From the NCBI GenBank assembly GCA_938041035.1, contig CALHYX010000050.1:5512-69511 (forward strand): a stretch of DNA of 64,000 nt. Reading direction: 5' to 3'. Below are positions 12,696-54,467 of the stretch, piece after piece (position 1 is the stretch's first letter; each line of letters opens with the position of its first letter). The notes beneath the pieces are model-generated. The model saw nothing but the letters and a program-made list of their open reading frames with translations, searched no databases and was not told the origin of the DNA. The translations under genes were made by a program, and so were the position numbers. This stretch comes from an uncultured Acidimicrobiales bacterium (GTDB taxonomy: Bacteria > Actinomycetota > Acidimicrobiia > Acidimicrobiales > SHLQ01).

Positions 12696-12792
12696 CGTGA
12701 CGGGTCTCCCCCCGTTTGGTGCCCAACAAAGAACTTGGCAACGCCGTCCCCCGGCGCGTGCCGTGGCCTGGCAGCAGGCCGGTTGCGCCGTC

Positions 12793-12824
12793 GGCGTCGG
12801 GCACCGAAACCGGTGCCCGACGCC
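12793..12824 (-). other. Perfect 14-bp stem / 4-nt loop hairpin between the binding-protein and permease genes
   Basis: GGCGTCGGGCACCG-AAAC-CGGTGCCCGACGCC, read directly from the sequence. Confidence 0.45.
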
Positions 12825-12857
12825 AACCGACGTCATTCAGTACGCCGTTTCCGGCGA

Positions 12858-38581: not shown

Positions 38582-38666
38582 TGTTCCCCTTGGAGGCTCG
38601 AACCGGTGTTGCCGCCGACGGTAGTGGAACTGGTTCCATTGCGGCGAATACCGCAGTGGTTTCGAG

Positions 38667-39839
38667 GTGACGGTTGATGAGTATGGTTCGTGGATGGCGA
38701 TCACTGGAACGACGCGCTCGACCTCCGAGCTGAATCTGCTCATCGACTACTGGGACCGGCTGACCTATGAGAACTCGCGCAAGCGGACGTCGCTCACGTC
38801 GGGGTTGATCCCGGTCCGCGAATACGTCTCGATATCGGGCGTGGAGGCGTGGTTGCGGTGGCCGGCCATCTTCGACCAGCTCGACGAGGCGATGGGGGCC
38901 GCCGAGCTCGGTGCCGCGTTGCGAGGCCCGGGAACCCGCACCACCAATGCGCACCCCTTTGCCCTTCCGGTCATCCCGTTCGGTGGGTGGCGGGCGGTCG
39001 ACCGGTTGGCGGAGTACGGGTTGGTCGAAGCCGTCGACGATGTCGAGGAGCGCGTCGACAAGATTCTCGACTTCTGGATTCGCTTCGTCGAGCCCTGGCG
39101 CGCCGACGGGTTCCGGTCGTGCTGGGACGCGGCGAACACGCTGCGTACCTGCGATCCCGAAATCATCGAGACCCTTGCCGATCACGCCCAGCCGGTCGTC
39201 GGCGCCGACGAGAACCGGCTGGCTCGCCGATTCGTGGCCGGACTACAGCAGTATCTGTTCCTGCTGTACCTCGATACCCGTCTGGGTACCGGCGACTCGG
39301 GCCCGTACCCCCTGCCCAACGGTCGCCACATGATCGTGCGCGAGTATTCGGGGCTCGGCCAGAGCTGGATCCCCTGGAGCGATGTCGGCGCGGATGCTCC
39401 CTATAACGAGGTCGTGGTCGGCCTCGTGTTCCGACCGGGCATCCACAACCAGGTCACCGACCTGTCGACCACCTTCTCGGTGCCCGCCGACAACCTCGAG
39501 TTTCTCGAGGCGATTTCGATCATGGCGCCCGGCCCCGACGGCACGCTCGTGCCGGTGCACGAACAGCGCGTCGAAATTGCCGCCGAGGTGAAAACTGCGC
39601 AGGCCGCCATCTACCGACGGATCGCCGGATGGTCGATGGCCGAGAAGGTGCATAACGGCGCCCACGTGTATTTCCGGGGACTGTTGTGGCCGCTCACCTC
39701 GGTCGCCGGGATCGACGAGGCAATCGACTGGTCCCTGCCCGGCGAGTCGGCGGCAGAGGCGTGGCCATTATTCGAAGGCGGCCTGCCCGAGGATCAGGCC
39801 GAAATGCAGCCGCCGTTGTTTCTGCGCTTGCCCGAGTAA
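38667..39839 (+). CDS. Hypothetical protein (390 aa, no recognised domain)
   Basis: Long ORF with strong GC3 coding bias, divergent from the ADH operon. The start is GTG 38667 or ATG 38694. Confidence 0.65.
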   Translation: MTVDEYGSWMAITGTTRSTSELNLLIDYWDRLTYENSRKRTSLTSGLIPVREYVSISGVEAWLRWPAIFDQLDEAMGAAELGAALRGPGTRTTNAHPFALPVIPFGGWRAVDRLAEYGLVEAVDDVEERVDKILDFWIRFVEPWRADGFRSCWDAANTLRTCDPEIIETLADHAQPVVGADENRLARRFVAGLQQYLFLLYLDTRLGTGDSGPYPLPNGRHMIVREYSGLGQSWIPWSDVGADAPYNEVVVGLVFRPGIHNQVTDLSTTFSVPADNLEFLEAISIMAPGPDGTLVPVHEQRVEIAAEVKTAQAAIYRRIAGWSMAEKVHNGAHVYFRGLLWPLTSVAGIDEAIDWSLPGESAAEAWPLFEGGLPEDQAEMQPPLFLRLPE

Positions 39840-39858
39840 GAGCGCGCCCGGCCCCGAC

Positions 39859-40071
39859 TCAGCTGACGGGGTCGAGGTCGTCGGTCGGGCGACGGTTCGA
39901 CGGATGCTGCCGCTTGGCTCGCCGGAGCCGGTATTCATCGAGCGCTACTACCGCCGCCAGCGGAGTCTCGGCATCGTGGTCTCGGCGATCGGCGAGCCGG
40001 GTGATCAGCGTGCGTTCAAGCGCGTCCGCATTCGACCCTTCGTCAACCGGGGGTTCATCCGACGTATCCAC
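39859..40071 (-). CDS. Small hypothetical protein (70 aa)
   Basis: ORF with a GTG start and moderately high GC3, located 51 nt downstream of the GNAT gene. No motif recognised. Confidence 0.3.
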   Translation of the reverse strand: MDTSDEPPVDEGSNADALERTLITRLADRRDHDAETPLAAVVALDEYRLRRAKRQHPSNRRPTDDLDPVS

Positions 40072-40122
40072 CCTCTGCCATTCGGCGAGGCGGCGCCGAT
40101 CATAAGGGGTCAGCCAAACCGG

Positions 40123-40698
40123 TCAGAGGTAGCGGGGCGGCGCGGCCGTGCGGAGCCGGGAGTCATCGGTGGCCAGCACCGCGTACAGCTCGCTGTCGCG
40201 CCATTCCTCACCGATCATCATGTCGTGGCGCAGTGACCCTTCGTACCGCATGCCAAGCTTGCGCAGCACCCGAGCCGACGCGGTGTTCTCCGCATCACAC
40301 ACCGCCCAGATCCGGTGCAGGGCAATGTCGTCGAACCCAAAGTCGACCATCAGCGCCGCGGCCTCGGTCGCATAACCCCTGCCCCACCGGTCGGCGCGCA
40401 GAAGATACCCGAGCTCGCCCCGGCGGTGCCGTCGACTGTCGATCGTCAGGCCGACAACGCCCACGACATGACCGGTCGCCAACTCCTCGATGGCGAGGTT
40501 GTAGATATTGCGAGGTTCCCGGGCGGCCTCGCCGAGCAACGTCGCCACGTAGTCCTCGTTGGCGGGCGCATCCATCGGCCCGAGCGGAACGAATTGCACC
40601 GCGGCAACGTCGCCGGTCCAGGCGAGGGTCGCAGCCGCGTCGCCGCTGGTGAACTCCCGCAGCTTCAGCCGCTCCCCCGAGATCTCTACGGGGAACAT
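40123..40698 (-). CDS. GNAT family N-acetyltransferase (RimJ/RimL-like)
   Basis: ATG 40698 (MFPVEISGERLKLREF...). The acetyl-CoA binding region reads RGELGYLLRADRWGRGYATEAA. Confidence 0.85.
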   Translation of the reverse strand: MFPVEISGERLKLREFTSGDAAATLAWTGDVAAVQFVPLGPMDAPANEDYVATLLGEAAREPRNIYNLAIEELATGHVVGVVGLTIDSRRHRRGELGYLLRADRWGRGYATEAAALMVDFGFDDIALHRIWAVCDAENTASARVLRKLGMRYEGSLRHDMMIGEEWRDSELYAVLATDDSRLRTAAPPRYL

Positions 40699-40739
40699 GG
40701 AGCCAGTATGGGAGGTGATCCGCTCACCGACCCAACCGG

Positions 40740-41612
40740 TCAGCGTGCGAGTTGGGCGACGAGTACCAGCTGTTCGGTGGTGAAGCCGCCGCCGACCCGG
40801 GATTGCGAACTCGACCCGACCAGCCACGCCGCCACCGCTTCGGCGAAGTCGCCGGCCATCGTGTCGAAGTCATAGGTCTGGCCCGATGGCCACCACGGCA
40901 CCGAGTTCGGGGCACCGCGAGCGGCGCGCCAGGCATCGCGATCGGCCTGCGAGTTCAACTCGAGGTCGATGACGTGCCCGAGTTCATGGGCAAACACGCG
41001 GGCGACCGATCCGGGGGTGTCATCGCTGCGCACGTACAGCTCAACCCGGTTGGTATCGGGGAAGGTGAGGGCCCGCACGCCTTCGCGGCCGGGCATGACC
41101 ACGACGGTCCAGTTCGGAAAGGCCGCCGACCAGTTGTAGGGGACCCGAGCGATGCCGGCCTGACCGACCGACAGGTACCGAGGCGCGGCGGTCGTCGTCG
41201 TGGGCAGCGACGGAGGCACGGTCGGGAGGGTCTGCGGGATCCGTTCAACCGGCAGGGTGGGCGCCGGATCGGCCAACGAGGTGGGGACGGTCGGCACCGT
41301 GTACACGGGAGGCAGGGTGGGCACGGGAGGCAGGGTGACCGGCACCGCCGTCGGGGGCGGCGCCAGCGAACTCGGAATCGTCGGTGCCGCCTCTGCATCG
41401 GCCCCCGCATCGGGCGGCGCCACGGGCGACGGGGTGGCCTCGGCCGGCTCCGATTCGGCGATCTCCACCACACCGAGTACCTCCGCCCCCGGAGTCGATG
41501 CGGTGGAGAACAACGCCGGATCAGAGCCAGCCAGTTCTCGAATGCCCACGGCCACTACCCCGCAAGCGAAAAGAAGGAGAAGGGTGAGTTTCCCCAACCA
41601 CGTCAGCGCCAC
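40740..41612 (-). CDS. Membrane-anchored, Pro-rich protein with a HExxH motif. Putative zinc metallopeptidase.
   Basis: Has an N-terminal TM segment (LGKLTLLLLFACGVVAV), a long P/T/A-rich linker and a C-terminal FAHELGHVID. Confidence 0.6.
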   Translation of the reverse strand: MALTWLGKLTLLLLFACGVVAVGIRELAGSDPALFSTASTPGAEVLGVVEIAESEPAEATPSPVAPPDAGADAEAAPTIPSSLAPPPTAVPVTLPPVPTLPPVYTVPTVPTSLADPAPTLPVERIPQTLPTVPPSLPTTTTAAPRYLSVGQAGIARVPYNWSAAFPNWTVVVMPGREGVRALTFPDTNRVELYVRSDDTPGSVARVFAHELGHVIDLELNSQADRDAWRAARGAPNSVPWWPSGQTYDFDTMAGDFAEAVAAWLVGSSSQSRVGGGFTTEQLVLVAQLAR

Positions 41613-41719
41613 TCATGTACTTTAAATGCTTTTCGATGCATTGAACAATAGGTCGATCGGCTGCGGGTCGGGCCGAAGCGTTTGGACGAGCCGGCCACCG
41701 CCGCTACTAGGGTTTCGCG

Positions 41720-42742
41720 ATGAACTTCGACACCGCCCTGCTCTGCCCACTCGACCAGGCCGCGGATCGGGCCCAGGCACTCGAGGCCGCCGGCTTCGAC
41801 GGGGTATTCACCTTTGAGGGCAACAGCGATGTGTTCTTCCCGCTGGTCGCCGCCGGCCAGGCCACCGACCTCGCCCTCGCCACCAACGTCGCGGTGGCGT
41901 TTCCCCGCAGCCCCATGCACCTCGCCTACCAGGCATGGGATCTACAGCGGCTGTCTCGCGGCCGCTTCGTGCTGGGCCTCGGCACCCAGATCCGCCCCCA
42001 CGTCGAGCGGCGCTACTCGGCGATTTGGGGAAAGCCGGTCGGCCATATGCGAGACCTGGTCGAGGCCATTCGAGCCATCTTTGCCTGCTGGCACGACGGA
42101 GCCCGACTCGACCTGCACAACGAGTACTACGACCTCGACCTCATGACGCCGATCTTTGAGCCGGGCGCCCTCGAATGGGGCCCGCCACCGATCTGGCTCG
42201 GCGCCCTCGGCCCCAACATGACCGCTCTCGCCGGCGAGGTCGCCGACGGCGTGTGGATCCACCCGTTCTCGACCTCGACGTTCGTGCGGGAACACACCAT
42301 CCCCAACCTCGCTCGGGGCGCGGAGCGGGCCGGACGGACGAGCGCCGACGTCGACCTCGGCATCTTGTCGATGGTCGGGGTCTACCGCGACGACGCCGAA
42401 CGGCAGGCGGCCGAGCAGGGTTGCCGCTTCAACCTCGCGTTCTACGGGTCGACCCCCGCCTACCGCGTGACCCTCGAGGCGCACGGATGGGGACACCTGC
42501 AGCCGGAGTTGCGGGCGATGACCAAAGCCAACCGCTGGGACGAACTCGGCACCCTCATCGACGACGAGGTACTCCACACGATCGCGGTGCTCGGTACGCC
42601 GGATGAGGTCGCCGGCCAACTCCACGAACGCTATGGCGACCTCGCCACCCGGCTCGGGTTCTCACTCCCCTACGGCGCGGGCGACGACCTGCTGGCCGAT
42701 CTGGTCGGTGCCTGCCACCAGACGTTCAACCCGCAGGACTGA
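41720..42742 (+). CDS. LLM-class (luciferase-like), probably F420-dependent oxidoreductase
   Basis: 340-aa protein of the luciferase-like monooxygenase family. Confidence 0.85.
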   Translation: MNFDTALLCPLDQAADRAQALEAAGFDGVFTFEGNSDVFFPLVAAGQATDLALATNVAVAFPRSPMHLAYQAWDLQRLSRGRFVLGLGTQIRPHVERRYSAIWGKPVGHMRDLVEAIRAIFACWHDGARLDLHNEYYDLDLMTPIFEPGALEWGPPPIWLGALGPNMTALAGEVADGVWIHPFSTSTFVREHTIPNLARGAERAGRTSADVDLGILSMVGVYRDDAERQAAEQGCRFNLAFYGSTPAYRVTLEAHGWGHLQPELRAMTKANRWDELGTLIDDEVLHTIAVLGTPDEVAGQLHERYGDLATRLGFSLPYGAGDDLLADLVGACHQTFNPQD

Positions 42743-44987
42743 GCGTCACCGGTATCGCGTTGAGTTCGGCGTTGCCCGACAGCGGGTCGACCGGCTCGGG
42801 ATCGGTCAACAGGTTGCTGTTCACGCCGGCGTGAGCGGCCGCGATCGACAACCGGGCGCCTTTGCGATCGTGGCCCCACCCATGGGGCAGGCTCACGACG
42901 CCGGGCCGGATCGTGTCGGCGATCTCCACCGGCACCGCGACCGTGCCCACCGCGGAACTCACCGTGGCGGTCGCTCCGTCGCGGAGGCCCAGCGTGGCCG
43001 CGTCGGACGGATTCACCAGCAGCGTGCATCGCGGCTTGCCCTTCACCAACACGCGAACGTTGTGCATCCAGGAGTTGTTCGACCGGACGTGACGTCGGCC
43101 GACCAGGAGGTACTCCCCGTCGCGATCGCGTTCGAGATCGGCGACGAGACGACCGAGATCCGCCGCGATCGGCTCGGGAACGATGGGGATGCGCCCATCG
43201 GGGGTGCGCAGAATTTCGGGGATGCGCGGGCCGAGAGGCCCCAGGTCAACCCCGTGCGGATTGGCGGCCAGGTAGTCGAGCGACAGCCCATCGGGCACCG
43301 CGCCGAACCTATCCCCGTACTCGCCCGCCCGGATCAACACGTCGAGCACCTGGTCGGCGCCACTGCGACCAACCGTGGTGAGCTCGCCCCGAAGCTCCTC
43401 CACCGGCCGGTCGAGCGCCCGGGCGGCCCGTTCGAGTTGGAAGGCGAGGGTGGCCTCGGCGACGGCCCACGGATCACCGTCGGGTCCTTCCCCACCGAGC
43501 AACAGCGTGAGCCGAGCCAGGATTTCCCATTCGGCCGGGCCGTGGGCCTCCACGGTCGGCGGGCTCCATTTGGCGACGTTGCGCACCGAAAGGGTCGTGA
43601 AGGCGACGTCGTAGTGGCTGCGGGCGAGGGGGCCTGGGGGCGGCAGGATCACGTGGGCGTGCCGGGTGGTTTCGTTGAGCCACGGGTCGACGCTGACCAG
43701 AAGGTCGAGTTGCGCGAGGGCGTCGTCGATCGCACCGGCGTCGGGACACGACAGGACTGGGTTGCCGGCCACGGTGAACAACGCTCGGATCTGGCCATCG
43801 CCCGGCGTGGTGATCTCCTCGGCCAGGGCGGCCGCGGGGAACTCGGCCCGGACCTCGGGCAGCCCGCGCACCCGGCTGGCCCACCGCCCGGTCACGAAAC
43901 CCCGACCCGACCCCGAACCGCGCCGGGCGTGGGCGGCCAGCGGGAACATGGCGCCGCCCGGCCGATCCAGGTTGCCGGTGACCAGGTTGAGAAGCTCGGT
44001 GGCCCACGAGGCCAACGTGCCAAAGCGGGTCGTGTGGGCACCGATGCGGGCGTACACCGCCGCGCTCGGCGCCGCGGCCAGGTCTGCGGCCAGGCTGCGG
44101 ATGGTGCCGGCGTCGATGCCGGTGACCGGGGCGACCGCGTCGGCGGTGAACGGGGCGAGGTGGCCGGCCAGTTCGTCGAATCCGTCGCAGTGTTCGGCCA
44201 GAGTCCCGAGATCGGCGGCGCCCGACGACACGACCTCATGGGTTAGAGCGAGGAGGAAATGAGCGTCGGTTCCCGGCCGAATCGCGAGATGGTCGGTCGC
44301 CAGAGCGGCGGTTCGGGTGAAGTTGGGGTCGACACAGACGAACCGGCCCCCGCGATCCACGATGGCCTTCAGCCGACCGGGAAAGTCCGGCGCCGTGCAC
44401 AGGCTGCCGTTGGACTCGACCGGGTTCGCCCCGAGCATCAGGAGGAAGTCGGTGCGGTCGAGGTCGGGCACGGGGATGATGTCGGGCGAGCCGAACAGCA
44501 TCCCGCTCGACACGTGCTTGGGCATCTGGTCGACCGTGGAGGCCGAGAACAGGTTCGTACTCCCGAGCGCCCGCAGCAGGGGCGGCAGAAAGAAGGAGGA
44601 CTCGTGGTTGTGGGCGTTCGGGTTGCCGACATAGGCGCCGAGGGCCTGGCGGCCGTGGGTGTCGACGACCTCGGTCAGACGACGTTCGATCTCGGCGAAG
44701 GCCTCGTCCCAGCTCACCTCCTCCCAGGTCGCGGTCGCGGGGTCATCGCCCCGGCGAATGACGGGGCCGGCCAGCCGATCCGGGTCGTCGTGCAGCGCAC
44801 CGATCGCCGAGCCCTTGGGACACAGAAAACCCTTGCTGAACGGGTCATCGCGGTCACCGCGAATCAACCACTCGTCGCCCCGCTTGCCGATCTCGAGCCC
44901 GCAGGTGGCCTCACACAGCGGGCAGGTGCGGTGGCCGAGCACGATGTGCTCGGGTTTGGTCGACGGGTCCCCGGAGGTCGTTGCCAT
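42726..44987 (-). CDS. Molybdopterin-dependent oxidoreductase (formate dehydrogenase / BisC superfamily)
   Basis: 753 aa. Has the N-terminal 4Fe-4S motif CPLCEATCGL...CPKG and molybdopterin-binding domains. Confidence 0.9.
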   Translation of the reverse strand: MATTSGDPSTKPEHIVLGHRTCPLCEATCGLEIGKRGDEWLIRGDRDDPFSKGFLCPKGSAIGALHDDPDRLAGPVIRRGDDPATATWEEVSWDEAFAEIERRLTEVVDTHGRQALGAYVGNPNAHNHESSFFLPPLLRALGSTNLFSASTVDQMPKHVSSGMLFGSPDIIPVPDLDRTDFLLMLGANPVESNGSLCTAPDFPGRLKAIVDRGGRFVCVDPNFTRTAALATDHLAIRPGTDAHFLLALTHEVVSSGAADLGTLAEHCDGFDELAGHLAPFTADAVAPVTGIDAGTIRSLAADLAAAPSAAVYARIGAHTTRFGTLASWATELLNLVTGNLDRPGGAMFPLAAHARRGSGSGRGFVTGRWASRVRGLPEVRAEFPAAALAEEITTPGDGQIRALFTVAGNPVLSCPDAGAIDDALAQLDLLVSVDPWLNETTRHAHVILPPPGPLARSHYDVAFTTLSVRNVAKWSPPTVEAHGPAEWEILARLTLLLGGEGPDGDPWAVAEATLAFQLERAARALDRPVEELRGELTTVGRSGADQVLDVLIRAGEYGDRFGAVPDGLSLDYLAANPHGVDLGPLGPRIPEILRTPDGRIPIVPEPIAADLGRLVADLERDRDGEYLLVGRRHVRSNNSWMHNVRVLVKGKPRCTLLVNPSDAATLGLRDGATATVSSAVGTVAVPVEIADTIRPGVVSLPHGWGHDRKGARLSIAAAHAGVNSNLLTDPEPVDPLSGNAELNAIPVTLSPAG

Positions 44988-45032
44988 TCGGGGAGTCTCG
45001 CACGCATCACCGACGGCTTCGACCCGAACCGC

Positions 45033-46355
45033 CTAGGAGGATGCGGGTAGGTACCGGTCGAGATTGCGGTGCAGGTTGATGATCCGGCATTCCTCGCCCG
45101 AGAGCGAGAGGTGGGTGAACCCGGGCTGATGCAGCCCTCGCTGGGCCTGCTCGATGTTGTCGACGTCCTGGTTGAGCACCAGACCGAGGTCGACATCACC
45201 TTTGGCCATCGTCACCGTGGGTGGGATGGTGCCGGCGGGAGCGCCCGGTTCGGCCCGGGTGAACGCCATGACGTCCATGAAGCACTGGTCGGGGGTGGGC
45301 CCGGGGCGAGACTTCACGATCTGCAACATGTCGGCGAAGACGAGCACGGTCACGTTCGGGAACACGTTGTACTGCGAAAGGTCCATCAGGTGTTCGGTGG
45401 CGAACAGCGAAAGGTCCACCCCGGTGGTTTCGAGGGTGTGCTCCCGAATTCGATCGGCGAGCACGTCGCGCAGGGTCGATCCGTCGGGGATCTCGGGGCA
45501 CGGCCCGGCGTCGGCGACCTCGCGCACGCCGAGTCGACCGCCCATGATCTCGACGAAGCCTTCCCAGACGGTTTGACGATCGACATCGCGCAACCTCGGA
45601 CTGGGCAATCCGTACGGTTGGAGGAGTTTGCCCACGTGGCCATCGCCCTCGTCGGCCCAGATGACCTGCGGGGAGTTGACGTCGTCCACCATCGGCAGCA
45701 TCTCGCGGTGGATGCCCTGCACGTGGTACGTCTCGCTGAACCCGTCGATCAACGTCTTCCAGTTGCAGCGCAACGCAGTGGTGAGCAGGGCGGAGCACCG
45801 GAAGTCGTCGACCATCGCCCAGGCCGAGTCCTCCGGTAGCGGTGCTAGGTGCTGGGCGAGCGACTCGGCATCGGGGTCGAGGTTGACCCAGACGGTCGGG
45901 CCCCACACGTCGACGCTGGCTTCGATCAGCGGGTAGTCGTCGTTTCGCAGCGTGCCGAACCCCTTCCGGGACGGCACCTCCCGCAGCCGCCCGTCGAGCG
46001 TCCAGGACCAGCGATGGAAACCGCACCGCAGCTCGGTGAGCCCGCCGCCGCTTCCCGAGCAGAGTTCGTTGCCACGGTGCAGGCACACGTTCTGAAAGGC
46101 GCGCAGCTCGCCGTCGGTGTCGCGCACGATGAGCACCGACAGGGCGCCGACCTCATAGACGAAGTAGTCACCCGGTCGAGCGACGTGGTCGAGACTGCAC
46201 GCAATCTGCCAGACGCGCGGCCACAGTTCCTCGGCCTCGCGCGCCGCATAGTCGGCGCTGATGTAGCGGTCGGCGTCGATGCGAACGGGAGCGTCGACCC
46301 GCCCCACCGACGAGATGGTCGAACCGGCGGCATTCTCGTCGGTGGTGGCGGTCAT
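45033..46355 (-). CDS. Rieske non-heme iron oxygenase alpha subunit (GbcA / choline monooxygenase-like size class)
   Basis: Has the Rieske motif CLHRGNELC...CGFHRW and the mononuclear iron motif DGFSETYHVQGIH. Confidence 0.9.
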   Translation of the reverse strand: MTATTDENAAGSTISSVGRVDAPVRIDADRYISADYAAREAEELWPRVWQIACSLDHVARPGDYFVYEVGALSVLIVRDTDGELRAFQNVCLHRGNELCSGSGGGLTELRCGFHRWSWTLDGRLREVPSRKGFGTLRNDDYPLIEASVDVWGPTVWVNLDPDAESLAQHLAPLPEDSAWAMVDDFRCSALLTTALRCNWKTLIDGFSETYHVQGIHREMLPMVDDVNSPQVIWADEGDGHVGKLLQPYGLPSPRLRDVDRQTVWEGFVEIMGGRLGVREVADAGPCPEIPDGSTLRDVLADRIREHTLETTGVDLSLFATEHLMDLSQYNVFPNVTVLVFADMLQIVKSRPGPTPDQCFMDVMAFTRAEPGAPAGTIPPTVTMAKGDVDLGLVLNQDVDNIEQAQRGLHQPGFTHLSLSGEECRIINLHRNLDRYLPASS

Positions 46356-46358
46356 CGT

Positions 46359-46715
46359 TCAGCCCAGGAACTCCGCGATGCGGTCCTTGGGCCGCCCGAT
46401 GATCGCCTTCTTACCCTTCACCACGATCGGCCGCTGAAGCAGAGCCTTCTTCTCGACCAGCAGGTCGACCACCGCTTCGGGGTTCCCGACGTAGTCGTCG
46501 GGGTTGAGTTCGAGCTTCTTGAACTTGGAGTCCTTGCGGACGAGATCCTCGACCGGGTCCTCGATGATCTTCACCAGGTTCTCGAGCGCCGCCCGGTCCG
46601 GCGGCTCCTTCATGTACAACACGACCTCGGCATCGACTCCCAGATCCTCGGCGACCGCCAAGGCGTTCTTGGAACTGCCTCAATGGGGGTTGTGGTAGAT
46701 GGTGACCTTGGCCAC
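46359..46715 (-). CDS. arsC: ArsC-family arsenate reductase (glutaredoxin-type fold) with an in-frame TGA (46680-46682) at the catalytic Cys position. Candidate selenoprotein; the alternative is a pseudogene.
   Basis: GTG 46715 is preceded by GGAG. Translation gives VAKVTIYHNPH-TGA-GSSKNALAVAEDLG..., continuing in the same frame as the 100-aa track ORF. It aligns with R773 ArsC ITIYHNPACGTSRNTL, and the total of 118 codons is typical for the family. Confidence 0.6.
46646..46663 (-). ncRNA. SECIS-like mRNA hairpin downstream of the in-frame UGA
   Basis: CCUUGGC-GGUC-GCCGAGG forms a 7-bp stem with one G-U pair. It starts 17 nt after the UGA and has a GU-containing tetraloop. GGCA directly after the UGA can also pair with UGCC further downstream. 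Confidence 0.4.
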
Positions 46716-46737
46716 GGTGTTCTCCGTCCTGTGGGGA

Positions 46738-48294
46738 TTAGTCGCGCTCGAACGGAACGCTTGCGAACCGTTCCTGAAGCACGTTCTTGGTGATCTTGCC
46801 AGATGGATTGCGCGGGATCGCATCCACGATCTCGAGCTGTTCGGGCATGGCGACCTTACGCAACCCCGCCTCGACGAGGAAGGCGCTCATCGTGGCCGCG
46901 TCGAGCGGCTCGGCGCCCTCGGCGGTCGCCACGACGGCGCACGCCCGCTCGCCAGTGCGGGAGTCGGGCAAGCCGATAACCGCAACGTCCTGGACCGAGG
47001 GGTGGGCGAACAACAGGTCCTCGACCTCCTTGGCCGAGATGTTCTCGCCGTTGCGAATGATGACGTCTTTGAGGCGCCCGGTGATCACGACGAATCCGTC
47101 GGCATCGATCGTGCCGAGGTCGCCGGTGCGGAAGTACCCGTTCTCATCGAACGCCGCCTCGTCGAGGGAGGCGTCGAGATAGCCGAGCATCATCTGCGGG
47201 GCCTTGGCCCGCAGTTCGCCTTCGACACCGGCGGCGACGATGTTGCCGGCGGCGTCGACCGCGATCAGCTCGACCCCCGGCATCGCCCGACCCTCAGAGG
47301 TGGCGAGCTTGTCGTCGGGGTCGTTCTGGTCACCCATGGTCAGGATCGGCGCTTCGGTGAGACCCCAACCCGAAACCACGCCGGCGCCTCCGAGTTCTGC
47401 TTTGACCTCGGCGTGCAGCGTGATGGGCTTGGGTGCCCCGCCGCCGGGGAAGTTCTTGACGTTGGGGAAGATCGGGGTGTCGGGGTTCTCCCGCTGGTGG
47501 GCGAGGTACACCATGTGGAACGGTGTCCCCGACCCCGGGTGGGTGCACTTTTCGTCGATCAACAGCGGCATCGTCGTCGGCGGGTTGAATGCCTCGTCAC
47601 ACAGCAGCGCACAACCCACCTGCAGCGCGGTGAACAGCCAGGTGATGCCACCGATGTGGGGGAACGGAAACACCAGGGCGGGGCGGTCGCCCTCGACCAC
47701 GTCGAGCCGGGTCCCCATGGCGTCGGCGACGGCATCGATCGAAGAGTCGGTGTGCCGGGCGCCTTTGGGGTCAGCCGTCGTGCCGGAGGTGTAGAAGTAC
47801 CACCGGACATCGGTGCCGTCGCCGGCGGGCGCGGCGGGCAACGTCGCGGGGTCACCGGTCGGGAACGCTCCCGGCGCCACCTCGATCGCGGTCAGACCAT
47901 CGATGTCGGCGGCCAACCCGCGCGCCATCTCACCGAAGTCGAATCCGCGAAATTCACCGGGGGTGAGCAGGAACTTTGCCTTGGCCTGACGACAGCAGAA
48001 GCCAACCTCGCGTTCGCGGTAGATCGCGATGATGGGATTCTGCAACGCACCGAGCCGGGCGAGGGCTCCGGTGAGCACGACCGTGTCGATCCACGTCGGC
48101 AGCTCCCAGGCGACGACATCGCCCTCACCGACCCCGAGGTCGTGGAGCCCGGCCGCCATGGCTTCGGCCGCAACGCGGTACTCGCCGAAGGTCATCCGAG
48201 CGCCGACCTGGTCGACCATCATCTCGGCATCGGGTGAGGCATCAGCGCGAGCCTCGATGAGCCCCCATAGCGTTGCCGCGGTCACGTCGGTCAT
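46738..48294 (-). CDS. AMP-dependent acyl-CoA synthetase/ligase
   Basis: Has the AMP-binding motif YTSGTTADPKGA and the GWGLTE and TGDLG motifs. GGGGGAG lies upstream of the ATG. Confidence 0.9.
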   Translation of the reverse strand: MTDVTAATLWGLIEARADASPDAEMMVDQVGARMTFGEYRVAAEAMAAGLHDLGVGEGDVVAWELPTWIDTVVLTGALARLGALQNPIIAIYREREVGFCCRQAKAKFLLTPGEFRGFDFGEMARGLAADIDGLTAIEVAPGAFPTGDPATLPAAPAGDGTDVRWYFYTSGTTADPKGARHTDSSIDAVADAMGTRLDVVEGDRPALVFPFPHIGGITWLFTALQVGCALLCDEAFNPPTTMPLLIDEKCTHPGSGTPFHMVYLAHQRENPDTPIFPNVKNFPGGGAPKPITLHAEVKAELGGAGVVSGWGLTEAPILTMGDQNDPDDKLATSEGRAMPGVELIAVDAAGNIVAAGVEGELRAKAPQMMLGYLDASLDEAAFDENGYFRTGDLGTIDADGFVVITGRLKDVIIRNGENISAKEVEDLLFAHPSVQDVAVIGLPDSRTGERACAVVATAEGAEPLDAATMSAFLVEAGLRKVAMPEQLEIVDAIPRNPSGKITKNVLQERFASVPFERD

Positions 48295-48312
48295 GTCTCC
48301 CCCTCAACCTTC

Positions 48313-48505
48313 GGGGTCAGACCCCACGAGTTCGGCGCGTCCGTCGGCGCCACGAGCGATCACCGTAGCCGCGGCCGCCAACGGGTGACAGATTGCCACG
48401 CCCGCCGCTGCGCTCCCGTTCCCGGGGCGTTCCCGGGGTCTGACCCCTCTATGTTCATTTGTGCGTGACCCGGGGTCTGACCCCCGCCTATGCTCATTTG
48501 AGCAT
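48313..48505. repeat. Intergenic cluster of repeats. It contains three GGGGTC(A/T)GACCCC palindromes (48313-48325, 48435-48447, 48472-48484), a tandem CGTTCCCGGGG x2 (48417-48438) and the 16-bp palindrome ATGCTCATTTGAGCAT (48490-48505).
   Basis: Read directly from the sequence. It lies in the 232-bp gap upstream of the acyl-CoA ligase gene. Confidence 0.5.
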
Positions 48506-48526
48506 TGCGGGCCGGCAGGTCGCCGG

Positions 48527-49408
48527 TCAGCTGGCGCGGGGAACGAACGGCTCGGGTTCGCCGGCCGAGGGCAGCGGATACCGGCGACGCACGAGGTCGG
48601 GCATCGCTTCACCGATCAGACCGGCGAGCATGGCGATCTCGGGCATCTCATTGGCCGGTCGAAGGTTGCCCCACACCAGCACGTGGGAGCCAAAGGTCTC
48701 GAGGCCGAGGTTGCCCTCGCCGCGCAGCAACAAATCGATGATGCGGGCGTCGAGAAACAGGTTGGGGAAGTCCTCGTCGGCGCACTCGATTCGGAAGGAC
48801 CGGTTGAACTCCTCGGACTCAAAGTCGATGTCGGAGCCGGTGATCCGGGTGACCAGCTTGGACATGTTGCCCTCCGGGGTCACGGTCAACGCCGGGAGCC
48901 AGGCCCCCACCTCGACCAGCGCGCCGGTACGCACCACTCCCTCGGATACCCACTCGGTGTTGGTCCTCCGGCCCACCCCCAGGGCGAGCATGACACTGCC
49001 CCCACCCACCGGAGAGCGTTTCGCTCGGCGGCGCCGGCGCTTGCCGTCGTTGCTGTGGATGATCTCGTACTCGTACTGGCCACAAAAGTCGTAGGCGACG
49101 ATAGGGGTACCCCGCGGGGTGCGACCGGACATCTGATTGCTGATCGACATGCGCTCCGCGCCGCCGTAGCTGGCAAAGCGGATCTTCCCCACGCCCTTGG
49201 CATCGTTGTTGTGATAGGTCAACCCGGCGCGATCCGCCGCATGTCGGGCCGCCCGGGCGCGGCCGCTGAACGTGTTGTACATCCACATGAGGAGGAGCAC
49301 GCCCACCACGGTGAAGACCACCACGCCGACCGTCATCCAGATCGTCGGCTCGAACGGCGCGTCGCGTCGTTGCGCTTCCAGTTGGGCGAACAGCCCGTAC
49401 CACGTCAT
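48527..49408 (-). CDS. Hypothetical membrane-anchored protein
   Basis: ATG 49408 (MTWYGLFAQ...). Has one TM segment (IWMTVGVVVFTVVGVLLLMWM) and a basic KRRRRRAKR patch. Confidence 0.6.
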   Translation of the reverse strand: MTWYGLFAQLEAQRRDAPFEPTIWMTVGVVVFTVVGVLLLMWMYNTFSGRARAARHAADRAGLTYHNNDAKGVGKIRFASYGGAERMSISNQMSGRTPRGTPIVAYDFCGQYEYEIIHSNDGKRRRRRAKRSPVGGGSVMLALGVGRRTNTEWVSEGVVRTGALVEVGAWLPALTVTPEGNMSKLVTRITGSDIDFESEEFNRSFRIECADEDFPNLFLDARIIDLLLRGEGNLGLETFGSHVLVWGNLRPANEMPEIAMLAGLIGEAMPDLVRRRYPLPSAGEPEPFVPRAS

Positions 49409-49458
49409 ACCGCGGTATCGACGGTTTGGAGCGCCCGCCTTAGCAGCGCGCGGAACCC

Positions 49459-50289
49459 CTAGTAGCCCTTGAACTCCGGAGCCCGCCGCTCGCGAAAGCT
49501 GGCGATGCCCTCGGCCACATCCATGGTGTGATTGTTGAGCTCGACCGCCCACGACTCTTCTTCAGCCATGGTGTGGCGGTCGACCTCAAAGGACCGATTC
49601 AACATCCACTTGGTGAGCATCAGCGCCTTGGTTGGACCCGAGGCCAGTTTCTCGGCCCACTCGGTGGCGGCGGCGACCAGTTCATCGGCCGGCACAATCT
49701 TGTTGCATAGCCCCAGTTCGAGTGCCTGCGCCGCCGGAATGTCCTCGGCGAAGAACATCAGTTCCTTGGCCTTTTGCAGTCCGACCAACCGGGGCAGGAT
49801 CCATGCGCCCAGCGCGTCGGGCACGAGGCCTCGCCGGGTGAAGATCTCGATCAGCTTGGCGTTGTCGGCCATGATCACGAGGTCGCACAAAAGCGCGAGG
49901 TGCGCCCCCATGCCCGCGGCGGTTCCGTTCACGGCCGCGATGATGGGCAGTTCGGAATCGAGAATCGCCGGCATGAGCGTGTGCTGACCCCGCAGCATCA
50001 TCCGGCGCGGCTCACCGACCGACGACGCCGGTGCGTCGTCGGGCCGATCGACCTGGTCCCGGTCGAAGGAGATGTCCGCACCGGGACAAAAGAGCTTCTC
50101 GCCCGTCGCCGTGATCACGATGGCGCGGGCTTCGAAGGTTCCGTTGAGCCCCTCGACGAGATCGCGTATCCGGTTCCGGTTCTCCGGGGTAAGCGCATTT
50201 CCCTTCTCCGGGCGGTCGATCGTGATCCAGGCCACCTGATTGCGGATCTCGAAGCGAATCTGTTCGTCTTGGGGTCGCTCTTCGGTCAT
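49459..50289 (-). CDS. Enoyl-CoA hydratase/isomerase family protein
   Basis: ATG 50289. Has the crotonase motifs FCPGADI and AAVNGTAAGMGAHLALLCD. Confidence 0.88.
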   Translation of the reverse strand: MTEERPQDEQIRFEIRNQVAWITIDRPEKGNALTPENRNRIRDLVEGLNGTFEARAIVITATGEKLFCPGADISFDRDQVDRPDDAPASSVGEPRRMMLRGQHTLMPAILDSELPIIAAVNGTAAGMGAHLALLCDLVIMADNAKLIEIFTRRGLVPDALGAWILPRLVGLQKAKELMFFAEDIPAAQALELGLCNKIVPADELVAAATEWAEKLASGPTKALMLTKWMLNRSFEVDRHTMAEEESWAVELNNHTMDVAEGIASFRERRAPEFKGY

Positions 50290-50297
50290 GGGCGCAA

Positions 50298-50675
<378 letters not shown>

Positions 50676-50731
50676 TCAGATGTGGGCGTAACCCTACCCT
50701 CGCCCGGCGGGTGGACCGCCAGTGCCCGGCG

Positions 50732-51280
50732 TCAGCCGAGACAGCGATCGACGGCGTCGAGGGGCGCCGCGAGTTCAGCCGGCACTTCCTCGCCCCCCTG
50801 CCCGGTGCGCCACAACCACAGGTCGCGCGCCCCGTCGGCTCCAAGCCCTCGTTCGACGCAGTTCCGCACCGCTTCGCCGCGGTTCACCGTAAGGCCATCC
50901 ACCGCCGCCTCGAGTAGATCAACGCACGCCTCGAATCCCGACACGATGCTCTCGACTTCGGCCTCGGTGAACGGCACCGAAGACGGTTCGAAGCCAAGGA
51001 TCTGGACCGATTCAACGCTGATTCCCAACTCGGCCATGCGGGCGGCCGGCACCTCGAGGAGGATCTCCCGGGCGATACAGACGGCATCGTCCTCGGGGAA
51101 CGCCACCGGAGGGTCACCTGGTTCGTTGGTGGAAAGGTCGACCGAGATTGCCGCCGCGAGGCGCCGGTCCTGGTCGTTGAGCTCGCGGCTCGGACGCCCG
51201 GACACGTACGACGCGATCGCGAACGCGGCGACGACCACCAGCACGGCGATCGCCAGGTTGCGCAGGCCTCCGGAAGTCAC
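50732..51280 (-). CDS. Hypothetical membrane-anchored acidic protein
   Basis: GTG 51280. Has an N-terminal TM segment (LAIAVLVVVAAFAIASYV). No recognised domain. Confidence 0.5.
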   Translation of the reverse strand: MTSGGLRNLAIAVLVVVAAFAIASYVSGRPSRELNDQDRRLAAAISVDLSTNEPGDPPVAFPEDDAVCIAREILLEVPAARMAELGISVESVQILGFEPSSVPFTEAEVESIVSGFEACVDLLEAAVDGLTVNRGEAVRNCVERGLGADGARDLWLWRTGQGGEEVPAELAAPLDAVDRCLG

Positions 51281-51402
51281 CGCACCACGCTACTGGCGTG
51301 CCGCCCCAACCCAGCCGGACCGGCCCGGGATTCAGCGGTCGGATCGGCGTGACCGATGACCCCCAAAAGAGGGGTTTACTCCGGCGCAGAAGCAGCGATC
51401 AT

Positions 51403-52128
51403 ATGGGCATGCAACGGTTCCTCCGAACGGCCCTTCGCCGTCCCACCTTCACCCGCCAGGGCGCCCTCAGTCGCGCTCGCCGCCTGCAGCCCGAACGCGC
51501 CCTCACCCCCCTTCGCAAAGTCACGATGTTGTTCGTCGGCTCCGGCCTGATCGGCATCGGCGTGACCCTGTTCCGGCGCGCCGACCTCGGGTTACCGCCG
51601 TTCGACGTGTTCTTGTCCGCCGTATCGGAGATCGCCAACGTCAGCCACGGACAAGCCAGCTGGGTCATCGGTGCGGTCCTGTTCGCCATCGCCGCGGCGG
51701 TGGGTCAGCGACCATCGCTGTACGGCGTGGGCTACGTGGTGCTGAACGGCGTCATGATCGACGCGATCGACCACCTGATCGGGGCCCCCGAAAGCCTGGG
51801 CGGCCGGCTGGCGTTCGTCCTCGCCGGGACCGCCACCATCGCCACGGCGGTATCGATCGTCGCCCACAGCACGTCGACCGGCGGCGCGTTCGAGCTGCTC
51901 ACACGGGCCGCGGAGCTCCGCGGCATCCAACCGGCGAGATTTCGCACCGGTCTGGAGGTAGTGATCTTCCTCAGCGGTGTTGCCCTCGGGGGCGTGTTCG
52001 GGGTGGCGACCGTGGTGTTCGCGCTCGGCATCGGTGTCCTGATCAACGCCACCGCCCAAGGGCTCGCCGATCACCGGGCCGGCCGCCAGGAACGCCTCGC
52101 GCAACGCCAACCCGTCAAGGCCGCCTAG
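51403..52128 (+). CDS. Integral membrane protein (YczE/YitT-like, uncertain)
   Basis: Multiple predicted TM segments. The start is ATG 51403 or ATG 51409. Confidence 0.55.
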   Translation: MGMQRFLRTALRRPTFTRQGALSRARRLQPERALTPLRKVTMLFVGSGLIGIGVTLFRRADLGLPPFDVFLSAVSEIANVSHGQASWVIGAVLFAIAAAVGQRPSLYGVGYVVLNGVMIDAIDHLIGAPESLGGRLAFVLAGTATIATAVSIVAHSTSTGGAFELLTRAAELRGIQPARFRTGLEVVIFLSGVALGGVFGVATVVFALGIGVLINATAQGLADHRAGRQERLAQRQPVKAA

Positions 52129-52183
52129 CCCGGGACCTCCGCAGAGCCGAGCGGGGCCCACGCGGCGTCCGTGGTCACTACCG

Positions 52184-53413
52184 CTAGGTCGGGATGTCCC
52201 GAAAGGGAATGCCCTTGTCGAGTCGGGGCTCGGGCGGCAATCCCAGGACGTTGTCGCCGATGATGTTGCGTTGCACCGCGTCGGTGCCACCACCGATCCG
52301 AGCCATCCATTGGCCGAGGAACGCGAAGTTCTGCCAGAACCCGCCCGATACCGCATCGTGACCGGCGAGCGTGGCGCCAGGGCCGAGGATCGCCATGGCG
52401 ATGTTGCCCATCGCCTCGAGCCGTCGTGATGACGCCAACTTGAGCACCGAGCTCTCGGGCCCCGGGAGCTCGCCGCGCGACGCGGCGGTGTGCACGCGGT
52501 AACCGAGAAAGCGCATCGTTTCGGTGTAGCCGTGCAACCGCATGAGATCCTGGCGGATCGTGGGGTCGTCGAGGACACCCCGACCGCGAGCGAGTTCGAT
52601 CAGGTCGGGTACCCCGACCGACGAGGCGCCTCCGATGCCGGTTCGCTCGCTCATCAGCGTGCTGAGGATCGGACCCCAGCCCCCGTTGATGGATCCCAGC
52701 ACGTTGGCCACGGGTACCCGCACGTCGGTGAGGAACACCTCGTTGAAGTGGGCGGCACCGGTGATCTGCACGAGCGGGCGGATCTCGATTCCAGGCGTGC
52801 GCATATCCAGCAGCAGGTAGGTGATACCACGGTGCTTGGGAACATCGATGTCGGTGCGGACCAGCAACATGCCCCAGTCGGCCTCGCGGGCGTTGGAGGT
52901 CCAGACCTTCTGACCGTTGACGACGATCTCGTCGCCGTCGACGATGGCGCTGGTGCGAAGACCCGCCAGGTCAGAACCGGCGCCGGGTTCGGAAAACAGC
53001 TGGCACCACAGGTGCTCCCCGGTGAGCATCGGTTCGAGCAGGTCGGCCTTTTGCTGGTCGGTTCCGTGCTCGATGATGGTGGGCCCGGCCATTCCTATCG
53101 ACTGGGCGAAGTGCCCGAAGGGGACCTCGAATCGGCGTTCTTCCTCGGCGAAGACCCGCGCCATGAGCGCCGGAAGCCCGCGTCCGCCGTACTCGACCGG
53201 CCACGTCAGCCCGGCCCAGCCGGCATCGAACTTGGTCCGCTGCCAGCGCTTGCATTCTTCGATCTTGGCGTCCTCTTCGGCGGTGGTCGCGGGCCGGGCG
53301 AAGGGACTGTCGGCCAACGTCTCGTGTCCGACCCTGGGACGCGCGTGCGCCTCGAGAAAGGCCCGGCATTCCCGCCGAAACGCCGCTTCCTCGGGGCTGT
53401 CGTCGAAGTCCAT
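52184..53413 (-). CDS. Acyl-CoA dehydrogenase
   Basis: 409 aa with ACAD N-terminal, middle and C-terminal domain features (WCQLFSEPGAGSDLA, GGGTDAVQRNIIG). Confidence 0.9.
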   Translation of the reverse strand: MDFDDSPEEAAFRRECRAFLEAHARPRVGHETLADSPFARPATTAEEDAKIEECKRWQRTKFDAGWAGLTWPVEYGGRGLPALMARVFAEEERRFEVPFGHFAQSIGMAGPTIIEHGTDQQKADLLEPMLTGEHLWCQLFSEPGAGSDLAGLRTSAIVDGDEIVVNGQKVWTSNAREADWGMLLVRTDIDVPKHRGITYLLLDMRTPGIEIRPLVQITGAAHFNEVFLTDVRVPVANVLGSINGGWGPILSTLMSERTGIGGASSVGVPDLIELARGRGVLDDPTIRQDLMRLHGYTETMRFLGYRVHTAASRGELPGPESSVLKLASSRRLEAMGNIAMAILGPGATLAGHDAVSGGFWQNFAFLGQWMARIGGGTDAVQRNIIGDNVLGLPPEPRLDKGIPFRDIPT

Positions 53414-53424
53414 CTCTGCGGCCG

Positions 53425-54354
53425 CTACTGGGCGCCGAAGACAGGCGCCGGCTCCGGGGCGGCGGCGATGGATTCATGGACCAGCGCTCCGGCCTCGGTG
53501 ACCGTCATGCGCCGGTCCCCCACCGTGGCCACCGGGCCGTGTTGCCAGCCGTCGCACACGTTGAGCTGCCCGCCGGTCGATTCGAATACCCGCCCGGTGA
53601 CGTCGCAGTGGGCCGAACCCAACCACACCATGAGCGGCGACACGTTGGCCGGGTCCTTCTCGTCCCACCCAGCCGGCGCGTCCTCGTCGTAGAAGATGCC
53701 AGCCGTCATACGGGTGCGGGCGTCGGGAGCCACCGCGTTGCACGCGACGCCGTAGCGGCCCCACTCCGCAGCCTGTTGAATCGTCAGCTGGGCGATAGCA
53801 GCCTTCGCCGCCGCATAATTTCCCTGCCCGATCGAGCCCATCAGGCCGGCTCCCGAGCTGGTGTTGACCACCCGTGCGACCACCGGGTCGCCGGCCTTGG
53901 CTCGATCGCGCCAATAGGTGATGGCGTGGCGAGCTGGGGCGAAGTGCCCCTTGAGGTGCACTCGGGTGACCGAGTCCCATTCTTCCTCGCTCATGCCCGC
54001 GAGCATGCGGTCGCGCAGGAAGCCGGCGTTGCACACCAGGGTGTCGAGCGAGCCGAAGGTGTCGATGGCCTGCTGGATCATGGCACCAGCCTGGTCCCAG
54101 TCGGCCACGTCGGCACCGTTGGCCACCGCCTGGCCACCCATGGCTTCGATCTCGGCCACCACGGCGGCGGCCGGCCCATCGCTGTCGGCCTCGCCGTCGC
54201 GGGAGACCCCGAGGTCATTCACCACGACCTTGGCGCCGGCAGCGGCGAACGCGAGAGCGTGGGCGCGGCCGAGACCACGGCCGGCACCGGTGACGATCAC
54301 GACCCGGTCGGCGCAGTCGACCTCTGCCGATACCTCATCTTGTCCAGCCGACAC
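53425..54354 (-). CDS. SDR family oxidoreductase (hydroxyacyl-CoA dehydrogenase-like, with a C-terminal extension)
   Basis: GTG 54354 is preceded by GGGAGGAA. Has the motifs TGAGRGLG, NAG and YAAAKAA. Confidence 0.85.
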   Translation of the reverse strand: MSAGQDEVSAEVDCADRVVIVTGAGRGLGRAHALAFAAAGAKVVVNDLGVSRDGEADSDGPAAAVVAEIEAMGGQAVANGADVADWDQAGAMIQQAIDTFGSLDTLVCNAGFLRDRMLAGMSEEEWDSVTRVHLKGHFAPARHAITYWRDRAKAGDPVVARVVNTSSGAGLMGSIGQGNYAAAKAAIAQLTIQQAAEWGRYGVACNAVAPDARTRMTAGIFYDEDAPAGWDEKDPANVSPLMVWLGSAHCDVTGRVFESTGGQLNVCDGWQHGPVATVGDRRMTVTEAGALVHESIAAAPEPAPVFGAQ

Positions 54355-54467
54355 AGCGTTCCTCCCGTGGTCCTGCCGGCGACGCCGGCGAGCGCACCCG
54401 CCGATGGGTGTGCGCGTAGCAGCACAGCACATTCAGCGGGCCGGGATCACATCGAGAGCAGGCTGGG

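Follow-up and report, generated by a model that had tools for sequence, protein, structure and literature searches.

Selenoproteins related to arsenate reductase have so far been predicted mostly from anonymous metagenome reads. In the Sargasso Sea study of Zhang, Fomenko and Gladyshev from 2005, 'Arsenate reductase' (COG1393, with a UxxS motif) was one of 15 new selenoprotein families; it comprised 14 sequences, and a figure of its selenocysteine (Sec) insertion sequence (SECIS) elements was given (PMC1088965). A UxxS family named 'ArsC 1' was included in the Global Ocean Sampling (GOS) study of Zhang and Gladyshev from 2008 (PMC2398784), and reviews of 2022 and 2026 still carry it, with TIGR00014 and the UxxS motif (PMC9312934, PMC13188914). 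According to the more recent one, such selenoproteins are nearly all bioinformatic predictions, and their functions are largely uncharacterised (PMC13188914). Here, we analyse a stretch of 64,000 nucleotides from an uncultured Acidimicrobiales bacterium (contig CALHYX010000050.1; this whole stretch is called the window, and coordinates refer to it), in which an open reading frame for an ArsC-fold protein is interrupted by a single UGA codon. We conclude, with a probability of about 0.87, that this locus is a Sec-recoded selenoprotein gene of 118 residues; its product is a member of the known, predicted and uncharacterised ArsC (ArsC 1) UxxS family. An earlier note on the same DNA, made from the letters alone, had regarded ArsC-like selenoproteins as known only through predictions from marine metagenomes, which agrees with the literature (PMC1088965, PMC2398784, PMC13188914).

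An ArsC reading frame with an in-frame UGA

The features that define the gene are as follows.

46359..46715, minus strand: complete ArsC-family selenoprotein coding sequence, Sec12 predicted (translation, Pfam, TIGR00014, PDB alignment, 80 related genomes)
46722..46725, minus strand: Shine-Dalgarno-like GGAG with a 6-nt spacer before the GTG, read from the sequence
46680..46682, minus strand: in-frame UGA, predicted Sec codon 12 (U-G-S-S, a UxxS motif), aligned with the catalytic Cys12 of R773 ArsC
46536..46538, minus strand: codon of Arg60 (LVRKD), equivalent to ArsC Arg60 (PDB alignment; invariant in alignment A1)
46431..46433, minus strand: codon of Arg95 (LQRPIVV), equivalent to ArsC Arg94 (PDB alignment; invariant in alignment A1)
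46392..46394, minus strand: codon of Arg108 (IGRPKD), equivalent to ArsC Arg107 (PDB alignment; invariant in alignment A1)

The frame extends from a GTG start (46715-46713) to the terminator TGA (46361-46359) and contains 118 sense codons, counting codon 12. Its translation is VAKVTIYHNPH-TGA(46682-46680)-GSSKNALAVAEDLG...; after AKVTIYHNPH and the TGA, the ArsC frame runs on as GSSKNALAVAEDLGVDAEVVLYMKEPP... The start, the internal TGA and the length of the frame are those proposed in the earlier note, which had also pointed out that the gene was truncated by automatic calling; indeed, the mechanical list of open reading frames holds just a 100-amino-acid piece, 46359..46661, with a TTG start. 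The ribosome binding site suggested there is present (46725-46722), with a spacer one nucleotide shorter than the approximately 7 nt given.

Family searches were run with cysteine written at the stop position 12. The protein matched Pfam ArsC (PF03960) with an E value of 2.3e-16 over residues 7-116, and the best NCBIfam model was TIGR00014, 'arsenate reductase (glutaredoxin)', with 101.1 bits. The Spx/MgsR model TIGR01617 gave 54.8 bits against a cutoff of 75.05, and the motif is U-G-S-S and not CxxC, which places the protein outside that family. When PDB chains were searched with phmmer, the whole protein could be aligned with 3RDW (E 3.9e-17) and with R773 ArsC (1I9D/1JZW, E 3.6e-15). The alignment with R773 ArsC pairs residue 12 with Cys12, R60 with Arg60, R95 with Arg94 and R108 with Arg107, so that both the placement of the TGA at the catalytic cysteine and the conservation of the three arginines, as claimed previously, were borne out.

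In a scan of one genome per species, 80 related loci were found (81 with the window), and 79 parsed Sec-form genes were aligned. Nearly all come from metagenome-assembled genomes (MAGs) of Acidimicrobiales/Acidimicrobiia from marine water, sediment and sponges; several are closed chromosomes obtained from long reads. Codon 12 is TGA in 81/81 loci, ATG or GTG stands exactly 11 codons 5' of it in 76 of the 79 parsed loci, and no further stop or frameshift occurs in any of the ArsC loci, the copy in the window included. The proportions of synonymous (pS) and nonsynonymous (pN) change in the 79 Sec-form genes were 0.67 and 0.09, respectively, at codons 2-11, upstream of the UGA (pN/pS 0.14), and downstream of it pN/pS was 0.20 at codons 13-17 and 0.24 at codons 24-117. 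Such a ratio together with so high a pS indicates that the part upstream of the UGA is translated; purifying selection there is at least as strong as in the rest of the gene.

These data bear on two explanations which dispense with recoding. One would be a pseudogene, or a sequencing or assembly error: the codon is a single base away from TGC, and a TGC-to-TGA nonsense change in a decaying arsC would leave a shortened automatic call of the kind observed. This explanation is effectively refuted, as the TGA recurs in every independent locus, long-read complete chromosomes among them (with 80 independent assemblies agreeing on it, an assembly error is excluded), the frame is otherwise intact, selection acts on both sides of the TGA, and the RNA hairpin described below is conserved. 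According to the other, translation would start downstream of the UGA, at TTG 46661 or ATG 46613, and yield a protein of 84-100 amino acids devoid of the nucleophile, with the upstream frame and the hairpin serving as a leader or regulatory region. Gene callers make exactly such calls in dozens of genomes; nevertheless, we regard a downstream start as highly improbable. Codons 2-11 combine strong amino-acid constraint with saturating synonymous change and reproduce the beta1/active-site motif TIYHNP of ArsC, the upstream start codon is kept at a fixed distance, the cysteine (Cys) forms of the gene are full-length in one frame, and without beta1 and the catalytic loop the remaining fragment would not make up a functional ArsC fold. 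Thus, the selection observed upstream of the UGA excludes decay, assembly error and a downstream start alike, and supports the Sec-recoded gene.

The protein search returned about 2,500 homologues. The closest of them (79-89% identity) are nearly all annotated as proteins of 100-101 amino acids with the same internal Met start. The proteins of a second group, 69-76% identical in the cases inspected, are full-length and have W in the catalytic column, and a third group, 66-70% identical, has C there (P0024, P0028, P0029, P0103). The nucleotide sequences show that in the 'W' proteins the codon is really TGA, on contigs of 38-44% GC translated under genetic code 4 (L082-L088); the tryptophan is an annotation artefact which hides selenoproteins. 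In the Cys forms, TGC occupies the UGA column (L089, L091-L094). Hence TGA-bearing and Cys-bearing homologues do align at the same column, a check that had been recommended at the outset.

Several further observations concern the distribution of these genes. Full-length entries with Trp in public sets include P0001, P0006 (369 member sequences), P0010, P0012, P0019, P0023 and P0032. A few loci with 76-82% identity (L028, L032, L055, L068, L075) are binned as Chthoniobacterales, Verrucomicrobiales or Pirellulaceae, and the low-GC contig L084:1203-1592 has a planctomycete-type PSCyt1 neighbour; these cases point either to mis-binning or to a gene transferred horizontally along with its SECIS. 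Two different Sec-ArsC loci, L027 and L047, are assigned to MAG isolate Ww568; they have the N-termini MAQVTIYHNPH*G.. and MPNITIYHNPY*G.. (in the second one Tyr replaces His before Sec) and are either paralogues or products of a mixed bin.

A conserved hairpin downstream of the UGA

Immediately 3' of the UGA, the transcript can form a short stem-loop within the coding sequence.

46646..46663, minus strand: SECIS-type hairpin CCUUGGC-GGUC-GCCGAGG; 7-bp stem, loop GGUC at 46656-46653, overlapping codons 18-24 (ALAVAE+G)

A spacer of 16 nt separates the UGA from the stem, and the distance from the U of the UGA to the first G of the loop is 26 nt. The published model of the bacterial SECIS (bSECIS) sets a distance of 16-37 nt.

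The hairpin leaves a clear imprint on codon usage. Along the gene, four- and six-fold degenerate codons have an entropy of 1.3-2.0 bits, whereas at codons 18-23 (A-L-A-V-A-E) the values are 0.10, 0.56, 0, 0, 0.58 and 0 bits; this is the gene's best-conserved run of third positions (0.96). Accordingly, pS in the Sec-form genes is 0.09 at these codons versus about 0.68 elsewhere, an approximately 7-fold drop. The RNAalifold consensus over 79 species is the same hairpin, with 99.3% of cells paired and an invariant GGUC loop. Two pairs of the stem show compensatory changes: pair 27-36 occurs as GC in 68 sequences, GU in 5 and AU in 6, and never as A.C, and pair 25-38 is UA in 77 and CG in 1, the latter representing a single switch. 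Contigs of 38-44% GC keep this GC-rich hairpin as an A-U variant. An extended lower stem was also considered as part of the SECIS and rejected, being 71.5% paired and outside the RNAalifold consensus.

The hairpin goes with the TGA. It is lost or altered in three of the four distinct Cys forms: absent in L093, replaced by a weak alternative in L091/L092 and provided with another loop, GAUA, in L094. The Cys form L089:227-583 (P0103, TGC, on a JGI metagenome contig) retains CCCUGGC-GGUC-GCCGAGG, the same variant as in the TGA-bearing L032, which suggests that Sec was converted to Cys recently here and that the SECIS persists as a fossil. Remnants of SECIS-like structures in Cys forms that descend from Sec forms are already on record (PMC1794560, Fig. 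4 legend). Searches of Rfam, in gathering mode on the whole window and in E-value mode on 46300-46800, gave nothing relevant, Rfam being without a usable bacterial SECIS model.

Selenocysteine machinery and genomic context

When the sequence of the window and its relatives was scanned for TGA codons that lie in frame and precede a hairpin with a GGU loop, one match recurred apart from the ArsC genes themselves, ...RL(S/T)QYSHGAG-TGA-ACKLGPS..., which is SelD (TIGR00476, 361 bits against a cutoff of 125; NF002098, 352 against 299). Fifteen of the 80 related loci carry this selD at a distance of 6-8 kb on the downstream side of the ArsC gene; one may serve as an example.

L059:16438-17574, plus strand: SelD with an in-frame TGA at the active-site Cys/Sec codon (TIGR00476, 361 bits)

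The others are L044, L054, L056, L057, L061, L064, L066, L071, L074, L076, L078, L079, L080 and L081. In 15/15 the TGA occupies the active-site Cys/Sec codon. The accompanying hairpin is of the type CUGGCGCA-GGUnn-UGCGCCA, about 35 nt after the UGA; its loop begins with GGU in 13/15, and the first loop base is C in L054 and L044. Public gene calls of selD are shortened to about 325-343 amino acids. A regular-expression search of six-frame translations for SelD, SelA and SelB signatures had returned nothing, and had missed the SelD present there because its active-site motif is G-U-A-C-K. At least 15 genomes with the Sec-ArsC gene thus also produce the enzyme that supplies the selenium donor, and in its gene they translate UGA as sense.

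The two selenoprotein genes, denoted ArsC(U) and SelD(U), are parts of a block with the order serB-like HAD/ACT phosphatase - ArsC(U) - gcvT - gcvP - (hypothetical protein, nucleoside hydrolase) - SelD(U), found in L044, L054, L056, L057, L059, L061, L064, L066, L074, L076 and L078-L081 (approximately 8.6-17.6 kb). Since the SelD proteins of the lineages that share the block are just about 60% identical, the two genes remain together, whether through ancestral synteny or, possibly, for a functional reason.

Several results weigh against the assignment of the window gene as a Sec-recoded arsenate reductase. Folded as a single 81-nt sequence, the hairpin of the window has z = -0.34 and is no better than shuffled sequences, so that its significance rests solely on the cross-species comparison; the SECIS-like hairpin of the earlier note is thus present, conserved, covarying and associated with the TGA, but in the window alone it does not rise above chance. 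The TIGR00014 score, 101.1 bits, is marginally under the equivalog cutoff of 106.05. ARAGORN found no tRNA-Sec in the window, which lacks any tRNA, or in the 80 loci, and neither the 64-kb window nor the approximately 1.3 Mb of flanking sequence from relatives yielded selA, selB or tRNA-Sec. For the window's closest relatives there was no selD among the matches listed. Finally, no ars-operon context was seen, the window gene being situated in a catabolic cluster. As to the remaining sel genes, none was found in the window, selD included, and selA and selB are not adjacent to selD in the relatives.

The missing machinery leaves room for another recoding event, in which the UGA would be read as Cys, Trp or another residue by a suppressor or Sec-like tRNA, the hairpin merely stimulating read-through. 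Natural UGA-to-Cys recoding by tRNA-Sec-like tRNAs takes place in some bacteria, and Sec-tRNA, SelA and SelB were not observed in the sequence examined. We nevertheless consider such a mechanism improbable. The hairpin has the features of SelB-binding bacterial SECIS elements (a small apical loop that starts with GG-U and is suitably spaced from the UGA), a loop of this type also comes after the selD UGA in related genomes, selD, whose product makes the selenium donor and which itself contains a UGA, co-occurs with the gene, and the UGA stands at a redox-active Cys position, a classic Sec/Cys pair. Moreover, TGA is the main stop codon. In the window, which is of 67% GC, it is the commonest one and ends 34 of the 53 predicted genes, including the ArsC gene itself; since it is the main ordinary stop, a genome-wide reassignment is excluded and read-through must be local and site-specific. 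No other selenoprotein gene was found in the window by extending every predicted gene upstream through in-frame TGA; the matches obtained in this way were rejected, as they represented adjacent same-frame genes or antisense frames.

Sec insertion thus remains the preferred reading of the UGA, and the taxonomic setting agrees with it. The use of Sec has long been established in Actinobacteria (PMC1794560, PMC5029168, PMC13449736), and for the sister order Actinomarinales a 2026 preprint reports selA, selB (divergent), selC and selD in every one of 84 complete genomes (bioRxiv 10.64898/2026.04.03.716425). The suggestion that such a gene would be unusual in an actinobacterial-type genome was therefore overstated, both with regard to these reports on Actinobacteria and Acidimicrobiia and because ArsC(U) is near-universal among the Acidimicrobiales relatives that were fetched. 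We infer, with good reason, that the window's own genome possesses the Sec machinery (selA/selB/selC).

The neighbours of the gene in the window are co-directional with it.

46738..48294, minus strand: acyl-CoA ligase (AMP-binding), upstream, ending 22 nt before the ArsC start (Pfam/NCBIfam)
45033..46355, minus strand: Rieske-type oxygenase alpha subunit, downstream, 3 nt after the ArsC stop (Pfam Rieske + Ring_hydroxyl_A)
42726..44987, minus strand: molybdopterin oxidoreductase, next, 45 nt beyond the Rieske gene (Pfam; no in-frame TGA)

The last of these is Fdh-alpha-like, far under any equivalog cutoff. The surrounding region, 37499-55397, is a catabolic cluster which, besides the molybdopterin oxidoreductase, Rieske oxygenase and acyl-CoA ligase genes, contains those for a Zn-dependent alcohol dehydrogenase (Zn-ADH), a luciferase-like monooxygenase, enoyl-CoA hydratase, acyl-CoA dehydrogenase and a short-chain dehydrogenase/reductase (SDR). 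Only L026 and L053 share the order ligase-ArsC(U)-Rieske-molybdopterin. In other lineages ArsC(U) lies between an aminotransferase and a LysR regulator, between the serB-like gene and gcvT-gcvP, or elsewhere, with P-II, methyladenine glycosylase, NUDIX/DUF4916, DUF1800, an MIP channel (4 loci), Bax1-I and Fpg as recurrent neighbours. No arsR, arsB/ACR3 or arsA/D was found in the window or among the recurrent neighbours of the 79 loci, whose singletons were partly annotated. ArsC(U) behaves as a stand-alone housekeeping-type gene.

In L092:144-2395, an AMP-binding ligase gene precedes the Cys-form homologue P0028 (NPKCSTS) by 11 nt and is thus the same type of upstream neighbour as in the window; the pairing of ligase and ArsC may predate the Sec/Cys switch in this sub-lineage. 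Elsewhere in the window, at about 12790-12827 (minus strand), the 5' end of ORF 10746-12836 contains a 16-bp inverted repeat with one G-U pair and a 6-nt loop, GTTGGCGTCGGGCACC-GGTTTC-GGTGCCCGACGCCGAC, within the first codons of the called 696-amino-acid frame. This is probably a terminator-like structure between two genes, and the frame probably has its true start further downstream.

Proposed mechanism and comparison with known systems

In the mechanism which we propose, the ribosome would start at GTG 46715 and would not terminate at the UGA 46682-46680, because the mRNA downstream would fold into the 7-bp GGUC hairpin (46663-46646). A hairpin of this kind is expected to recruit SelB with Sec-tRNA(Sec), and Sec would be inserted at position 12; the second UGA (46361-46359), which has no such hairpin, would serve for termination. 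Sec12 would then take the place of the Cys12 nucleophile, beside the predicted anion-binding triad of Arg60, Arg95 and Arg108. Most likely, the selenolate would attack arsenate or an oxyanion like it, and a thiol system of the cell would then resolve the adduct. We infer actual Sec insertion, arsenate as the substrate and the reductant from the sequence comparisons.

Arsenate reduction is the best functional guess because the position of the nucleophile and the three anion-binding arginines are conserved, and arsenate is, by a modest margin of confidence, the probable substrate. A possible alternative, to which we give distinctly less credence, is a real ArsC-fold selenoprotein with another substrate (an oxyanion other than arsenate, a compound of selenium or a disulfide in a protein) or with a different function in redox chemistry, so that 'arsenate reductase' would be just a family label. 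It would account for the lack of ars-operon context in every arrangement seen, for the position of the window gene between an acyl-CoA ligase and a Rieske oxygenase, for the score just below the TIGR00014 equivalog cutoff and for the linkage with selD in 15 genomes; besides, the functions of predicted selenoproteins are uncharacterised (PMC13188914). On the other hand, the alignment extends over the full length, with the nucleophile site and the three anion-binding arginines of R773 ArsC all conserved, TIGR00014 is the best family by far (101 bits versus 55 for Spx/MgsR), stand-alone arsC genes are common, and the MIP-family channel found two genes away in 4 loci is a weak hint of arsenite efflux. 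An even more specific proposal would be that the UxxS Sec-ArsC clade is a near-core Acidimicrobiales gene with no role in arsenic resistance, working instead in selenium/oxyanion metabolism, for example by reducing a selenium oxyanion or by handing reduced selenium to SelD. It is hinted at by the linkage of the Sec form with selD in 15 species, by the absence of an ars-operon context and by the stand-alone spread of the gene across neighbourhoods; we consider it unlikely, and mention it as speculation. An ArsC-fold selenoprotein acting on arsenate remains the reading that we prefer.

The practical consequence of these results concerns annotation in the first place. In all genomes examined, 80 or more in number, standard callers cut ArsC(U) to 84-101 amino acids or read its UGA as Trp (code 4), and the catalytic residue and the first beta-strand are consequently missing from public protein sets; the neighbouring selD suffers the same miscalling. 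Nothing is changed in kind, as marine metagenomes have yielded predictions of this family since 2005 and a specialist in selenoproteins would recognise the gene at once. What is added is a well-defined SECIS with quantitative support (the invariant GGUC loop and covarying stem pairs), a co-occurring selD which itself contains Sec, and a home for a family predicted 20 years ago and never characterised, which can now be placed in named, abundant Acidimicrobiia associated with marine water, sediment and sponges. ArsC(U) is near-universal among the sampled Acidimicrobiales relatives and has apparently spread to a few lineages of low GC or binned to other phyla. With a defined SECIS and a taxonomic home, it would be straightforward to compare Sec and Cys arsenate reductases directly by biochemical means.

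Among characterised proteins, R773/E. coli ArsC (1I9D, 1JZW) is the natural reference. The similarity extends over the full length and includes position 12, the arginine triad and a catalytic core of similar size; the window protein differs in having predicted Sec in place of Cys12, in its length of 118 as against 141 amino acids, with the C-terminal extension gone, and in the lack of an arsRBC/arsRDABC operon around its gene. With the 'Arsenate reductase 2' UxxC selenoprotein (cd03032, NF041106) it has in common the ArsC/Spx superfamily and Sec at the N-terminal redox position, but that protein is Spx-like, whereas the window protein is of the UxxS type and NF041106 is absent from its NCBIfam matches.

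The hairpin resembles the archetypal bacterial SECIS, that of E. coli fdhF, which likewise is located within the coding sequence directly 3' of the UGA and has GGUC/GU in its apical loop; the G and U of the fdhF loop are, according to the work of the Bock laboratory, the bases contacted by SelB. Counted from the U of UGA, the first loop G is at +27 here and at about +23 in fdhF. The 7-bp stem shows no bulged U, support for a lower stem is poor (71.5% paired), and SelB would be the predicted ligand.

The closest described system is the ArsC 1 UxxS family itself. The window gene agrees with it in the pfam03960/TIGR00014 assignment, the position of Sec and the U-x-x-S motif (here U-G-S-S), in a stem-loop with G in a small apical loop just 3' of the UGA, in hosts of marine type and in Cys homologues that far outnumber the Sec forms. 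The comparison was made with the published description of the family, for which AACY01238341 and MBT3519430.1 are example sequences, and it revealed no essential difference. The published ArsC 1 entries are mostly anonymous metagenome reads, whereas here the family is represented by 80 species, with both covariation of the hairpin and synonymous constraint quantified.

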